Below are positions 12,887-33,432 of a DNA stretch of 49,410 bases, in pieces. The notes under the pieces are model-generated. The model saw nothing but the letters and a program-made list of their open reading frames with translations, made no database searches and was not told where the DNA came from. The translations under genes were made by a program, and so were the position numbers. The DNA comes from Bacillota bacterium (lineage in GTDB: Bacteria > Bacillota > Clostridia > TANB77 > CAG-508). Each line of letters begins with the position of its first letter. Position 1 is the stretch's first letter. The DNA lies in contig CAWVJG010000029.1 in assembly GCA_963929465.1 (NCBI GenBank), forward strand, positions 1 to 49,410, read 5' to 3'.

Positions 12887-12955
12887 ACAACGATAATATT
12901 ATATATTATTTTTCATTTTATGTCAATCTTTCTTTATTTTCTTCACGATGAAGGA

Positions 12956-13022
12956 TTTTAGGGACAGGCAAATCGGGAAAAATGAGTCCATCTCCAATTT
13001 CCCGATTTGTCCGTCCCCAAAA
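12956..13022. repeat. Repeat A2: imperfect inverted repeat containing the GGGAAAAATGAGTCC.TC.CCAA unit
   Basis: The arms at 12956-12980 and 12998-13022 are complementary with 3 mismatches. The centre matches the A3 arm sequence with 2 substitutions. Confidence 0.8.
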
Positions 13023-13110
13023 TTCTTCAATTGTTATTGCAGTTTTTTTTATTTAATGATATGATTATTTTAATAGGAACAAATCCGTTTAAGAAAAGAG
13101 GAATGATACT

Positions 13111-15198: not shown

Positions 15199-16176
15199 CT
15201 AGAGACTTTTAAAATATTCTTCTATTTTATTGATTAACTCCTCTTTTGTTTCTATCTTATTAATGGAATTTCTAAATTCACTTGAATTTTTAAGATTTTT
15301 TGTATACCACGCAATATGTTTTCTAAGTTCCTTAACTGCTATCTCTCCTTTTTCTTCTACTGCTAGATCGATATGTTTTTCTATAATCTGTAATTTTTCT
15401 TGATTGGTTGGCTCCTCCATTTTTTTACCATTTGCTAAATATTCGATGATTTCCTTAAATATCCATGGTCTTCCAAATGTTCCCCTTCCTATCATGATAC
15501 CATCTACACCAGTATATTCAAACATTCTTTTTGCTGTTTCACCATCTACCACATCTCCATTTCCAATAACTGGAATATGTACACTTTCTTTTACTTGTTT
15601 TATAATATCTAAATCAGCCTTTCCTGTATAAAATTCACTTCTTGTCCTTCCATGTATTGTTATGGCTGATATTCCTACTGCTTCTGCGATTTTTGCAATC
15701 TCTACAGCTACAACGTTTTCCTTGTCCCATCCTTTTCTGATTTTTAATGTAACTGGAACTTTTGAATGCGCCATCACTGTTTTTAAAATGCTTTCTGCTT
15801 TTTTTAAATCTAACAATAATTTACTACCATCACCATTTTTAACAACCTTTGGTGCTGGACATCCCATATTAATATCCACAATATCTGCAATATTGCTTAC
15901 ATATTCTGCGGCATATGCCATGGATTCTTCGTCACTTCCAAAGATTTGCATACTAATCGGTCTTTTTTCCTCATCTGTATTCAACAATCTTTTCGTTTTC
16001 AAATCATTATGAAACATGGCTCTTGCACTTGCCATTTCTGTGCAAACCATCCCTGCTCCGTATTCCTTGCATATCATTCTAAACGGTCTATTCGTAACAC
16101 CTGCCATTGGTGCTAAAATTAAATTATTATCTAGTTCTACATTCCCTATTTGTAACTTTTTAATATAATTCATCAT
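15199..16176 (-). CDS. dus: tRNA-dihydrouridine synthase
   Basis: 325 aa with LAPMAGVTNRPFR and a Dus-type FMN TIM-barrel layout. Confidence 0.85.
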   Translation of the reverse strand: MMNYIKKLQIGNVELDNNLILAPMAGVTNRPFRMICKEYGAGMVCTEMASARAMFHNDLKTKRLLNTDEEKRPISMQIFGSDEESMAYAAEYVSNIADIVDINMGCPAPKVVKNGDGSKLLLDLKKAESILKTVMAHSKVPVTLKIRKGWDKENVVAVEIAKIAEAVGISAITIHGRTRSEFYTGKADLDIIKQVKESVHIPVIGNGDVVDGETAKRMFEYTGVDGIMIGRGTFGRPWIFKEIIEYLANGKKMEEPTNQEKLQIIEKHIDLAVEEKGEIAVKELRKHIAWYTKNLKNSSEFRNSINKIETKEELINKIEEYFKSL

Positions 16177-16237
16177 TTCTCCTTGTAAAATATATATTTT
16201 TTATCTATATGACAACACCTAATTATATATTTAATAA

Positions 16238-16439
16238 AGTTCAGTGTAGAATTCTTGTATATTTATTTTTATAAATGACGAATGTGATTGGAGAATGATT
16301 AGAAATTCTTAAATAATTTTATGGAAAATGTTCGCGCTTGACGTGAAAGGGCGCCATAAAATTATTTTAGAATTTCTTGGCATTCGTATTGAGCCGAGGA
16401 ATTTATAAAAATAAATATACAAGAATTCTACACTGAACT
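16238..16439. repeat. Foldback element B1 (202 bp)
   Basis: It has perfect 39-bp outer arms (16238-16276 and 16401-16439) and the conserved boxes GACGAATGTG and GAGCCGAGG. It also has an inner stem and a GC-rich apex. Confidence 0.9.
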
Positions 16440-16449
16440 GTAATTTCTT

Positions 16450-17556
16450 TTATTGAACAAATATTGTTTTTTGTCTTTTACCACTAATATTTAATAATAG
16501 TCCTATACATATGAAGTTTGTAATCAAAGAACTTCCACCATAACTAACAAAAGGTAGTGGTACACCTGTTATTGGTAATAATCCCATAACCATTCCTATA
16601 TTTTCTAATACATGGAATAAAAATATTCCTGTAATTCCTATAGCAATTAGGGAACCTGCTTTATCTTTTGCTGTTTTTGCAATATAGATACATTTAGTTA
16701 TTAAATACACATATAGCAAAATAATACCACCTGCTACAATAAAGCCCATTTCTTCTCCAATAACAGAATAAATAAAGTCTGTTGTTTTAGGATACAAGAA
16801 TCCTAATTGTGTTTGATTTCCTTTTAAGATTCCCATTCCTGTTAGCCCCCCTGAACCTATGGCAATTTTAGATTGAATAATATTATATCCAGCTCCTCTA
16901 GGGTCTGATTCTGGGTTTAAAAATACATCAATTCTGCTTTTCGCATGTTCTGGCAATACAAAATTGTATAATAATGGAACCGCAATGATAATTAATAAAA
17001 TTGTTCCTATAATATATTTCTTATCCAAACCTGCCGAAAATAACATTAATGCCATTGCTACAATATAAGCTAATGCTGTTCCATAGTCAGGTTGCATAAC
17101 AATTAACAAAACTGGTAATCCCACAACTGCCAATGCAATTGGTAATCTTGTTATTCTATTGATTTCATCTTGTCCTTTTCGTTGAATTTTTATAATTGTA
17201 TATGTTAAAAATAATATCACAAATATTTTATCAAATTCTCCAGGTTGGAATGAAAAACCAAATATATTATACCAACTTGTTGCTCCATTAATTGGAGATG
17301 TAAATAATACACCTATTAATAACACAATAAATATGCCATATAATACTGGTGATGCCTTTAATAATAAGTTATAATCTATAAACATAACAATTACCATAGC
17401 AATTAAACTAACTACAAACCATATTATCTGCTTGGTAAATTCTTCATATTCAGTTTCTTGTGTGGCAGAAAATAATGCAACTATTCCTATAATACATAGA
17501 ATAATTGCAGCAATTAGGATTCCCCACTCCATATTTTTTAATTCTCTTTTTACCAT
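16450..17556 (-). CDS. rodA: FtsW/RodA/SpoVE-family peptidoglycan polymerase (RodA by context)
   Basis: Polytopic membrane protein with GSGGLTGMG and PITGVPLPFVSYGGSS, located directly after minD-minE. Confidence 0.8.
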   Translation of the reverse strand: MVKRELKNMEWGILIAAIILCIIGIVALFSATQETEYEEFTKQIIWFVVSLIAMVIVMFIDYNLLLKASPVLYGIFIVLLIGVLFTSPINGATSWYNIFGFSFQPGEFDKIFVILFLTYTIIKIQRKGQDEINRITRLPIALAVVGLPVLLIVMQPDYGTALAYIVAMALMLFSAGLDKKYIIGTILLIIIAVPLLYNFVLPEHAKSRIDVFLNPESDPRGAGYNIIQSKIAIGSGGLTGMGILKGNQTQLGFLYPKTTDFIYSVIGEEMGFIVAGGIILLYVYLITKCIYIAKTAKDKAGSLIAIGITGIFLFHVLENIGMVMGLLPITGVPLPFVSYGGSSLITNFICIGLLLNISGKRQKTIFVQ

Positions 17557-24947: not shown

Positions 24948-24978
24948 GTCCCATTGGGGACGTTTCTGTTTGGGACAT
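24948..24978. repeat. Repeat V1 (31 bp)
   Basis: gtcccattggggacgtttctgtttgggacat matches 26466-26496 at 29 of 31 positions, in the same orientation. Confidence 0.85.
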
Positions 24979-24981
24979 TTT

Positions 24982-25169
24982 GAGGGATTTTGGGGACGGA
25001 CTCATTTTTCCCTTTTTTATAATTTTAAATTATCCTACTATTACATAATTACTTAGAATATGATTTGATAAATCTAAAATTAGTTTTGTAAAAATAATTT
25101 TTTTGTAGTCTATATCTCAGATTTCGTGATTTAAAAAAGGGAAAAATGAGTCCGTCCCCAAAATCCCTC
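24982..25169. repeat. Repeat A3: 188-bp element with perfect 35-bp terminal inverted repeats
   Basis: gagggattttggggacggactcatttttccctttt at 24982-25016 has its exact reverse complement at 25135-25169, with a 118-bp AT-rich spacer and no ORF. Confidence 0.9.
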
Positions 25170-25188
25170 AAAATTCCTAAATCAGACA

Positions 25189-26496
25189 CTAGTTTAAACC
25201 TGCCACATAACCTGTAGAATATGCTATTTGCAAATTAAATCCTCCTGTATAGCTATCTACATCAATAATTTCTCCTGCAAAAAATAATCCTTTCACTTTT
25301 TTAGATTCCATTGTTTTTGGATTAATTTCTTTGATATTAACTCCTCCACTTGTAATGATTGCCTCTTCTATTGGCCTAAATCCTCTTATTATGATTTCAA
25401 AGTCTTTGATTTCTTTTATTAGTTGTTCTCTTTCCTTTTTTGTTATTTCATTTACTTTTTTATTAGGATTTATTTTACTTCTTGCAATCACAACAGGTAT
25501 TAATTTCTGTGGTAACAATTTGTCTAAACTATTTTTAAATTGTTTATTTTTTGCATCTTCAAAATCTCTTAAGATTCTGTCATTTAATTTCTTTTCATCT
25601 AAAGCTGGTTTTAAATCTATTTTTAAAACTATCTTTTTTTCATGAAATAATTTATCAATATTTTTATATCTAACCAAATGTGCCGATGAACTTAAAATGG
25701 TTGGGCCTGAAACGCCAAAATGTGTAAATACCATTTCTCCAAAATCTTCATATATTTGCTTATGTTTTTCTATATCGATTAACTTGATTTCCACATTTCT
25801 TAAACTTAATCCCTGTAATTCCTTACATTCTGCTTTATCATATACCTCTAAAGGAACTAGCGATGGTTTTATTTCTGTTATACTATGTCCTAATTTTTCT
25901 ACTAATTGATATCCATCACCTGTTGAGCCTGTTAATGGATAACTTTTTCCTCCTGTGGCTAATATGACTTTATTTGCGTTTATGATTTCTCTATCTGTTT
26001 TTACTCCAATAACTGTATTTTCTCCATCTACCATTTCTGTTAAAATCTCTACAACTCTTGTATTATATTTTATATCTATATCTAATTCCTTAATTTTTTT
26101 AGTAAAACATTTTAAAACATCTATAGATTTATCTGTTACTGGAAAGATTCTGTTTCCTCTTTCTTCTTTTACTTCTAGTCCTTGTTGTTTTAGAAATTGA
26201 ATGATGTCTTGATTAGTATATTGCTGATAAGCACTATATAAAAACATACCATTTCCTGGTGTATTTTTGATAAAATCTTCCATCTCTAAAGAAGATGTAA
26301 TGTTACATCTTCCTTTTCCTGTAATTAAGAGCTTTTTACCTAATTGATTATTTTTTTCTATTATCAATACGTCATTTTTATTTTCTTTAGCCGTAATCGC
26401 TGCCATCATTCCAGCAGGACCACCACCAATCACTATTACTTTATCCAAAACCAATTCCTTTCTATGTCCAATTGGGGACGTTTCTATTTGGGACAT
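25189..26496 (-). CDS. BaiN/HI0933-family NAD(P)/FAD-dependent oxidoreductase
   Basis: Motifs VIVIGGGPAGMMAA and TGKGRCNITS. The ATG at 26496 overlaps the upstream stop (TAATG), but the first 10 codons are the V2 repeat. An alternative TTG at 26448 follows AAAGGA. Confidence 0.8.
   Translation of the reverse strand: MSQIETSPIGHRKELVLDKVIVIGGGPAGMMAAITAKENKNDVLIIEKNNQLGKKLLITGKGRCNITSSLEMEDFIKNTPGNGMFLYSAYQQYTNQDIIQFLKQQGLEVKEERGNRIFPVTDKSIDVLKCFTKKIKELDIDIKYNTRVVEILTEMVDGENTVIGVKTDREIINANKVILATGGKSYPLTGSTGDGYQLVEKLGHSITEIKPSLVPLEVYDKAECKELQGLSLRNVEIKLIDIEKHKQIYEDFGEMVFTHFGVSGPTILSSSAHLVRYKNIDKLFHEKKIVLKIDLKPALDEKKLNDRILRDFEDAKNKQFKNSLDKLLPQKLIPVVIARSKINPNKKVNEITKKEREQLIKEIKDFEIIIRGFRPIEEAIITSGGVNIKEINPKTMESKKVKGLFFAGEIIDVDSYTGGFNLQIAYSTGYVAGLN
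26466..26496. repeat. Repeat V2 (31 bp)
   Basis: gtccaattggggacgtttctatttgggacat is the direct-repeat partner of V1. It overlaps the annotated first 10 codons of the BaiN-like ORF. Confidence 0.85.
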
Positions 26497-29613: not shown

Positions 29614-29656
29614 GCATATTTTTACTTTTATTTTAATTATTCTATCTTTTGGATAC

Positions 29657-29888
29657 GGTTCAGACTAGTGTATCAGGGGGAAAGTATTTATAAATTATTT
29701 CATTACGAATGTGATTGGAAAATATTTAGAAATTCTTAAAGCATTTTTTGGGAAAATGTTCACGTCGAACGTAGTGAGAACTAAGTGAAAGGGTGCCATA
29801 AAATGATTTTAGAATTTCTTAATATTTGTATTGAACCGAGTAATAAATAATTTATAAATACTTTCCCCTTGATACACTAGTCTAAACT
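29657..29888. repeat. Foldback element B2 (232 bp)
   Basis: The inner core is highly similar to B1. The outer arms of about 45 bp are different from B1 but pair with each other (2 non-Watson-Crick positions). Confidence 0.9.
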
Positions 29889-29942
29889 GTAACATCTTTT
29901 ATTCTTTATAAAAATCGACTATACGAGATTATTCTGCTCCAT

Positions 29943-33204: not shown

Positions 33205-33432
33205 TCCGTTTCGAGATTTTAGCAGGTGAGGTGATATGTATTATTTTTTGAATGTATTGACGAATGTGCCGTGGAATAGATGTATAAATTCTTAGTTTTC
33301 AATAAATGAGGAAGCGCGAGCAGCGAGAGGCTCGTTTATTGAAATCTTAGAAGTTATCATCTATGAAGCAAGCCGAGGAAATCATGAAAAAAATAATACA
33401 TATCACCTCACCTGCTAAAATCTCGAAACGGA
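33205..33432. repeat. Foldback element B3 (228 bp)
   Basis: It has perfect 45-bp outer arms (33205-33249 and 33388-33432) unrelated to those of B1 and B2. It keeps the same GACGAATGTG (33259-33268) and AGCCGAGG (33371-33378) boxes. Confidence 0.85.

Follow-up and report, generated by a model that had tools for sequence, protein, structure and literature searches.

The foldback element B1, which lies between rodA and dus, is probably an old insertion of a non-autonomous transposon (MITE) whose arms have been homogenized at the DNA level and whose core is a separate, strand-constrained module. Members of its family have terminal repeats of about 20 bp and an 8-bp target duplication, occupy intergenic sites only, and have been gained and lost between close relatives. 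The preliminary description of this DNA had weighed a MITE against a selected structure or inverted copying and preferred either of the latter. Fixed termini, 8-bp duplications, filled, empty and deleted sites, and dispersed intergenic copies instead mark the element as a MITE, which is also how the empty-site comparison, named beforehand as the refuting one, came out. The conserved middle of the element is cargo of its own kind, found in several different transposon shells. Its structure is constrained on the purine-rich strand only, as shown by tolerance of G·U, tandem G·A pairs and covarying stems.

The window (the whole 49,410-nt stretch of DNA that was analyzed) has a G+C content of 28%. 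Both rodA (16450–17556) and dus (15199–16176) are on the minus strand, and B1 sits 10 nt beyond the rodA stop codon and 61 nt ahead of the dus ATG, as had been claimed. Its coordinates and anatomy had been described correctly. The left outer arm (16238–16276) and the right outer arm (16401–16439) are reverse-complementary at 39 of 39 positions, and if one mismatch is allowed the inverted repeat grows to 42 nt (16235–16276/16401–16442). We infer that a perfect 39-bp inverted repeat within 400 bp could not arise by chance in 49 kb. The terminal 17 bp or so of the left arm are the family terminal repeat, and the inner 25 bp or so form a core-proximal arm that is common to other copies. With the degenerate outermost bases of the terminal repeat included, the whole MITE copy spans 16233–16444, with no strand assigned to it; the consensus of its terminal repeats, taken from the ends of other copies, reads GTTACAGTTCAG... 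/ ...CTGAACTGTAAC. The B1 junctions are identical in the orthologous copies L057, L068 and L083.

Between the arms, all on the plus strand, are two boxes, an inner stem and an apex. Box 1 (16277–16292, GACGAATGTGATTGGA) forms the 5' strand of a conserved internal loop and box 2 (16386–16400, GTATTGAGCCGAGGA) its 3' strand; the shorter boxes named in the preliminary description, GACGAATGTG at 16277–16286 and GAGCCGAGG at 16391–16399, are where it placed them. The 5' half of the inner stem (16293–16324) pairs with the 3' half (16354–16385) at 88% complementarity, also as described. The apex (16325–16353) carries the purine motif GTGAAAGGG, which is GAGAGG in other subtypes. A 218-nt region containing B1 folds at −92.8 kcal/mol on the plus strand and −81.6 kcal/mol on the minus strand, compared with about −35 and −23 for shuffled sequences (z = −16.3 and −16.9, respectively).

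A profile built from the family and searched against the window found exactly three copies, B1, B2 and B3, with E-values of 3.5e-36, 2.2e-25 and 6.7e-18; the two sister copies reported earlier are real. B2 (29652–29893, plus strand) has an 8-bp target duplication on both sides, ATCTTTTG at 29644–29651 and ATCTTTTA at 29894–29901, i.e., ATCTTTT(G/A), which is the clearest sign of transposition inside the window. The diverged copy B3 (33205–33432, plus strand) has 50-nt arms that are 96% complementary, the boxes GACGAATGTG and AGCCGAGGAA, and an apex of a second type. The window also holds a second, unrelated foldback family at 65–199, 12949–13029 and 24962–25189, built around GGGGACGG / CCGTCCCC with arms of 32–58 nt. 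GGGAC-type repeats resembling this second family are found on both sides of a B core in L067 and make up the interior of a GTTCAG-type shell at L068:6270–6470.

We searched a single genome of each species for a pattern of box 1 and box 2 with a gap between them (ACGAATGTGATTGGA ... GTATTGARCCGAG). The matches listed included at least 80 loci in 27 assemblies, all of them uncultured Clostridia or Bacillota MAGs from animal guts (chicken, mouse, goat and others), and the MAG CAYVCM alone has at least 20 family copies. Across the 80+ loci the elements are 56–350 bp long, and every one of the 87 copies that we extracted is intergenic. Searching Rfam 15 with the window and 18 diverse loci gave no match at the gathering score and only chance-level hits at E-values up to 10. 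BLAST searches of plasmids with B1 and with the terminal repeat returned nothing or chance matches only, no family match was found in the viral contigs searched, and a full-text literature search for the box sequences found no paper. Apparently, B1 belongs to a new, undescribed MITE family that is spread across uncultured gut Clostridia.

A terminal inverted repeat of about 20 bp, GTTAC-N-RTTCAG..., is present at both ends of most copies. The B1 arms had been called locus-specific, a claim that does not hold. The arms of a core-less 56-bp element in another MAG (L022:133–188) read GTTACAGTTCAGTGTAGAAT and reproduce the terminal 20 bp of the B1 arm, so this part of the arm is a family feature. 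The inner 25 bp of the B1 arm (TTCTTGTATATTTATTTTTATAAAT) are likewise found in other copies, L017 for example. Immediately outside the terminal repeats, at least nine copies (B2 included) have a direct 8-bp target duplication: TTTTTTTG in L051, TATTGTTC in L035, AATATTAT in L020, TTTTTGCA in L011, CCTTTATG in L035b, CGATAAAA at the 76-bp core-less mini-element L073:2828–2903 and ATTGGAGA at the 56-bp one in L022. For B1, the duplication is visible only in a short allele of the locus (TAAACATG/TAAACATA) and has decayed in the window allele. The same ends enclose a different core at L068:6270–6470, and the orthologous place in the window is empty. Family members occupy another intergenic region in five species, where at least two of the insertions were independent events separated by about 10 bp.

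Neither the roughly 600 kb of collected loci nor the plasmids searched yielded an autonomous element with such ends. Within the collected loci, neither terminal-repeat pairs 0.7–2.5 kb apart nor boxes separated by a gene revealed an autonomous partner, and no transposase partner emerged among the proteins repeated between loci. One candidate autonomous element, in L004, turned out to be a second, diverged MITE beside unrelated genes. We also rejected a coding function: GAGGAATTTATG resembles a ribosome-binding site with a start codon, but B1 lacks an ATG there, and the frames and lengths that follow GAGGAA-ATG differ between copies. No conserved reading frame was seen in the family elements. 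Nor is the core a nested insertion with its own duplication, given that the short direct repeats by the boxes (GAATGNAAT) are conserved sequence rather than variable copies of a target. The MITE would have depended for its movement on a DDE-type transposase that acts in trans and cuts with an 8-bp stagger. We consider the long clostridial IS6/IS26-like group a candidate only, because what links it to the family is the same duplication size and similar-looking ends.

The core varies a great deal in sequence and very little in structure. Across 83 copies, five very different inner-stem sequences keep their pairing, with 92.5% of cells paired compared with 64.3% in shuffles (none of 500 reached the observed value) and with 35–56% when the partners were slid by 1–3 columns. 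The covariation score was 0.71 versus 0.24, compensated changes were found in 33 of 36 core pairs, and in the consensus inner helices every pair has changed on both sides across the copies. A DNA palindrome would give the same covariation signal, and for this reason we examined strand asymmetry. On the strand that reads from box 1 to box 2, G:T outnumbers A:C by 33 to 11 in unique contexts of the inner stem, as against 40 to 43 in the outer arms; copies are related by descent, so these counts, like those for covariation and orientation, are not fully independent events. The plus (purine) strand is the more stable in 80 of 80 copies with RNA parameters (mean −43.7 vs. −32.3 kcal/mol) and in 79 of 80 with DNA parameters.

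The boxes had been described as unpaired. They indeed lack plain complementarity, but they need not be unpaired: GACGA, set against GAGGA, can form G·A, A·G, C-G, G·A, A·G, a geometry that covariation supports. Two bases outside the search pattern, the one preceding ACG and the one following CCGAG, are G and G in 67 copies and T and T in 9, and in the latter the outer G·A and A·G become U-A and A-U, as they do in the diverged copy L004b. Box 1 is invariant in the 83 copies, which is partly ascertainment because most of each box was used to find them (the pattern took in 15 of the 16 nt of box 1 and 13 of the 15 nt of box 2). In diverged copies found by other means, about 10 nt per box survive, GACGAATG and AGCCGAGGAA. 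All five stem subtypes retain the apex motif G(A/G)GA(A/G)AGG, even though it lies outside the search pattern. The core as a whole (GACGAATGTG..., ...AGCCGAGGAA and the apex GAGAGG) was found in at least four different outer shells. A pseudoknot between box 2 (GAGCC) and the apex (GGCUC) was discarded, being available in one stem subtype only. One subtype (L014, L049, L077, L016, L034, L048, L054, L005 and L079) has an additional G+C-rich hairpin to the right of the core and ahead of the right terminal repeat; it reads GGGCG...CGCCCC, with TACA after it, and its stem covaries from copy to copy.

The constraint on the purine strand suggests that the core acts as a folded single strand, either RNA or single-stranded DNA, and most likely it would serve as a protein-binding hairpin. 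We think it possible, if on balance doubtful, that the core is a new structured module, with a tandem G·A loop and a purine apex, that functions as a folded single strand and has spread in unrelated MITE shells. Such a module might be an RNA antisense to operons, or single-stranded DNA exposed during replication or transposition, and could bind a host or a transposon protein. If true, the core would be a functional RNA or DNA motif borne by MITEs, not junk between terminal repeats.

The orientation of the core relative to genes is strongly biased. In 57 settings with co-directional neighbors, the purine strand is antisense to both genes in 47 and sense in 10, or about 40 versus 10 when orthologous loci are collapsed. 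An element with symmetric ends is expected to insert without a preferred orientation, so the bias against the purine strand in the gene sense would most simply reflect selection after insertion. GC skew follows the coding strand and therefore cannot separate replication from transcription as the cause. One possible reason is that sense transcripts with a very stable fold and a Shine-Dalgarno-like GGAG or GAGG...AUG do harm. Another is that a stable hairpin is prone to deletion when it lies on the lagging-strand template, as L089 and the short allele of B1 (both described below) would illustrate.

A consensus scan for conserved promoters and terminators gave only weak promoter matches, no more than in shuffled sequences, and no terminator. 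One promoter-like match (10 of 12 positions) lies on the minus strand at window positions 16222–16250 and points towards dus; it spans the junction of arm and flank, with the −35 TCTACA inside the left arm of B1 and the −10 TATAAT in the flank, and such matches are no commoner than in shuffles. Resemblances to Chi, KOPS/SRS, DnaA-box, IHF, cre and CodY motifs were set aside as misfits in sequence or orientation.

The strongest alternative to a MITE insertion, one that we regard as the less likely by a clear measure, is that the host has selected B1 chiefly as a structured RNA (a small RNA or an mRNA element that acts in cis) and that the transposon shell is no more than its vehicle. The purine loops GGAG, GAGG and GAGAGG would then bind a protein or the ribosome, and the usual orientation would put their CCUC complements inside the operon transcript. 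Covarying stems, conserved loops, a strand-specific structure, an orientation biased relative to genes and a core kept across different shells are all in keeping with such an RNA. There is also precedent in bcr1, a transcribed repeat with compensatory changes (PMC3184786), and in the Correia elements, to which RNase III binds (PMC2649163). However, the strand that folds well is antisense to the neighboring genes in most copies, no conserved internal promoter or terminator was found by the consensus scan or by reading the arms directly, and Rfam has no match. Core-less elements and elements with other cores have the same ends and have spread too, close relatives have lost or lack B1 and show nothing visible in its place, and palindromic DNA yields apparent covariation in the absence of any RNA.

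As the preliminary description had argued, passive decay of a MITE fails to explain the pattern, in which both arms change together, the stems covary strongly, and the boxes and apex are conserved on one strand. In the 17 copies from CAYVCM, the arms differ between copies at 53 of 70 columns, and within a copy left equals right in 841 of 901 variable cells, compared with a mean of 634 and a maximum of 726 in 2000 shuffles of partners. A comparison of four orthologous B1 copies shows at least six changes that are present on both arms, with an arm divergence of about 7% and a flank divergence of about 10%. Arms that diverge at close to the neutral rate and yet stay paired point to a mutational process rather than to slow two-step compensation. 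Template switching during replication is the best explanation, and it is documented to homogenize the arms of repeats, invert spacers and expand arms (PMC8604942, PMC7202029, PMC13100816). Inverted spacers are present in the family: with respect to the flanks, L001 and L083–86 carry the core in the orientation opposite to that in the window, and with respect to asymmetric outer arms, L046 differs in the same way from L017 and L082.

The arms would be kept paired by a nascent strand that switches template from one arm to the other (quasipalindrome correction), so that a mutation in one arm would be either erased or copied to the other. Template switching or recombination between the arms could also invert the spacer, and hairpin-assisted slippage could delete parts of the element. 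The correction appears not to be the whole story. A tandem G·A / A·G mismatch (TTGAAT / ATGAAA) in the outer stem, seven pairs from the loop, is found in 16 of the 17 CAYVCM copies and also in other subfamilies. It persists even though pure template-switch correction should erase it, which suggests that selection acts there too. Selection for pairing in transposing lineages could also give symmetric arms without template switching.

The preliminary description had raised a second possibility for the arms, that each site builds its own arms by copying local sequence in inverted form (foldback synthesis). For B1 this fails, given that homologs of its arms exist elsewhere, both at other loci and in other genomes, and we regard it as largely refuted and very unlikely. 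The B1 arm ends recur in other genomes and as mini-elements, in most copies a shared terminal repeat adjoins a direct 8-bp duplication of the ordinary kind, and the part of the arm that varies is enclosed by conserved segments on both sides instead of being at the edge. In three copies (L050:3125–3405; L039:2420–2695, here L039a; and L061:455–720), the arms continue to pair over 9–18 bp of flanking sequence outside the terminal repeat, and no direct duplication can be seen. These copies are what speaks for foldback synthesis, together with the ability of template switching to expand repeats (PMC13100816), and at most it is to these few that inverted copying applies. Their extra pairing is possibly arm expansion by template switching.

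The strand-specific structure, the conserved non-Watson-Crick features, and an orientation bias with respect to the direction of the genes (and hence probably of replication) also recall elements that move as folded single-stranded DNA, namely a single-strand hairpin of the IS200/IS605-REP/RAYT type or an integron attC-like site. We find this reading hardly tenable for B1. Such systems do not make 8-bp direct duplications and symmetric terminal repeats; IS200/IS605 and REP/RAYT elements have asymmetric ends, subterminal hairpins and no duplication, unlike the symmetric terminal repeats with 8-bp duplications seen here. The ends read GTT...AAC outward (GTTAC...GTAAC), the reverse of attC R''/R' (RYYYAAC...GTTRRRY), and the neighbors are housekeeping genes. 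No HUH transposase or integrase is nearby, and if genes follow replication, the strand that folds well would be on the leading-strand template.

The history of the rodA-dus site accords with an old MITE insertion. In L068 and L057, the flanks are about 90% identical to those in the window and the element has the same junctions. Contigs that encode an identical Dus carry either the window allele (L087) or a second, short allele (L001, L083–86 and L088), in which the core is inverted relative to the flanks, the apex is deleted, and several arm changes are present on both sides. The duplication retained by the short allele, TAAACATG / TAAACATA, takes in the rodA stop codon. This second allele is similar to L057, as is the window allele to L068. 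The pair therefore represents old lineages that recombination has exchanged rather than a single switch seen in both of its states. In L089 (Dus 96% identical; L089:1118–1200), the flanks are those of the window and only 19 bp of the dus-side arm are left, corresponding to window 16238–16256 (reverse complement AATTCTACACTGAACTTTA); at the rodA-proximal end the sequence is ...CTGAACTGTA. This relative has lost the element by deletion between AAGAA(A)TT microhomologies. The rodA-dus spacer is short and empty in relatives with a 93% identical Dus and in the more distant L007.

Several other features of this locus were observed in passing. The L002 contig equals the window over their overlap and stops about 20 bp outside B1 (its start is equivalent to window 16215), which suggests that the repeat or its allelic variation disrupts short-read assemblies. 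In L085:1–971, rodA is split into two frames of 212 and 128 residues, by a frameshift or an assembly error. The empty-spacer relatives L090–L098 have a small hairpin, aaaggaaaaGTTCAttttccttttt, after rodA and just upstream of dus (e.g., L090:1149–1200). Its loop reads GTTCA, as in the MITE terminus, which may be a coincidence or a hint of hairpin targeting.

An inverton, in which a site-specific recombinase flips the core between the arms and controls dus or rodA expression, could account for the two core orientations among identical-Dus contigs and for the promoter-like match that points towards dus across the arm-flank junction, but it is the least credible reading of all: beyond orientation, the alleles are set apart by the deleted apex, by several arm changes that are compensated and by substitutions in the flanks, they correspond to two diverged lineages in other species (the L057 and L068 types) that have been exchanged by recombination, no recombinase gene is in the neighborhood, and in invertons it is the repeats that are conserved, whereas here it is the core.

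A MITE family of this kind matters in practical terms. It is abundant (three copies in a 49-kb window), adjoins core genes and appears to break assemblies. In annotation, it should be masked as a repeat and not labeled a regulatory RNA or an inverton. The family also offers natural material for two questions: whether template switching or selection keeps long inverted repeats perfect as they diverge, and whether a conserved, strand-specific hairpin carried on a transposon has a function of its own. To our knowledge, MITEs are among the least studied bacterial mobile elements, and almost nothing is known about them in uncultured low-GC gut Clostridia.

The closest described analogs are bcr1 of Bacillus cereus (PMC3184786) and the Correia elements of Neisseria (PMC2649163). 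Like the B1 family, the bcr1/bcr repeats of the Bacillus cereus group are MITE-like, intergenic elements of a Firmicute, about 150–250 bp long and flanked by direct repeats, with a distribution that is not conserved between strains and compensatory base-pair changes that keep a long fold (PMC3184786). They have no sequence similarity to the B1 family, their duplication is 5 bp rather than 8 bp, and in the B1 family the core is modular, occurring in several shells, and the arms are much longer (39–78 bp). Correia elements (PMC2649163, PMC10969869) also place inverted repeats around a conserved core in many intergenic copies, and they too have flank junctions that can create promoters, length variants that arise by internal deletion, and a long hairpin that would be an RNase III substrate if transcribed. 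They differ in having 26-bp repeats, a TA duplication and an IHF site, where the B1 family has an 8-bp duplication and no IHF site, inhabits Firmicutes, and has a purine-rich internal loop with tandem G·A pairs.

More distant parallels come from other small repeats. The effects of BOX, RUP, SPRITE and ERIC elements depend on their orientation in transcripts. The pneumococcal BOX, RUP and SPRITE elements (PMC3049150) and enterobacterial ERIC resemble the B1 family as small, modular intergenic repeats with stable hairpins; their sequences are unrelated, and BOX has neither terminal repeats nor a target duplication. The IS6/IS26 elements, including the long clostridial clades VII and VIII (PMC6807381), have an 8-bp duplication and members in Clostridia, and the end consensus GGTTCTGTTGCAAA resembles GGTTACTGTTCAGAG, a resemblance of the ends only. 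No IS6/IS26-type transposase was found next to or near any copy. IS6/IS26 elements move through cointegrates, and they are not known to give rise to MITEs.

Quasipalindrome template-switch mutagenesis (PMC7202029, PMC8604942) is the described process that explains arm homogenization, spacer inversion and arm expansion here. Most known cases involve short repeats with short spacers, whereas in this family arms of 39–78 bp enclose a 120-bp spacer that is itself a hairpin. Compared with an ordinary MITE, what the B1 family adds is a modular, strand-specific core with tandem G·A pairs and a clean case of concerted arm evolution.
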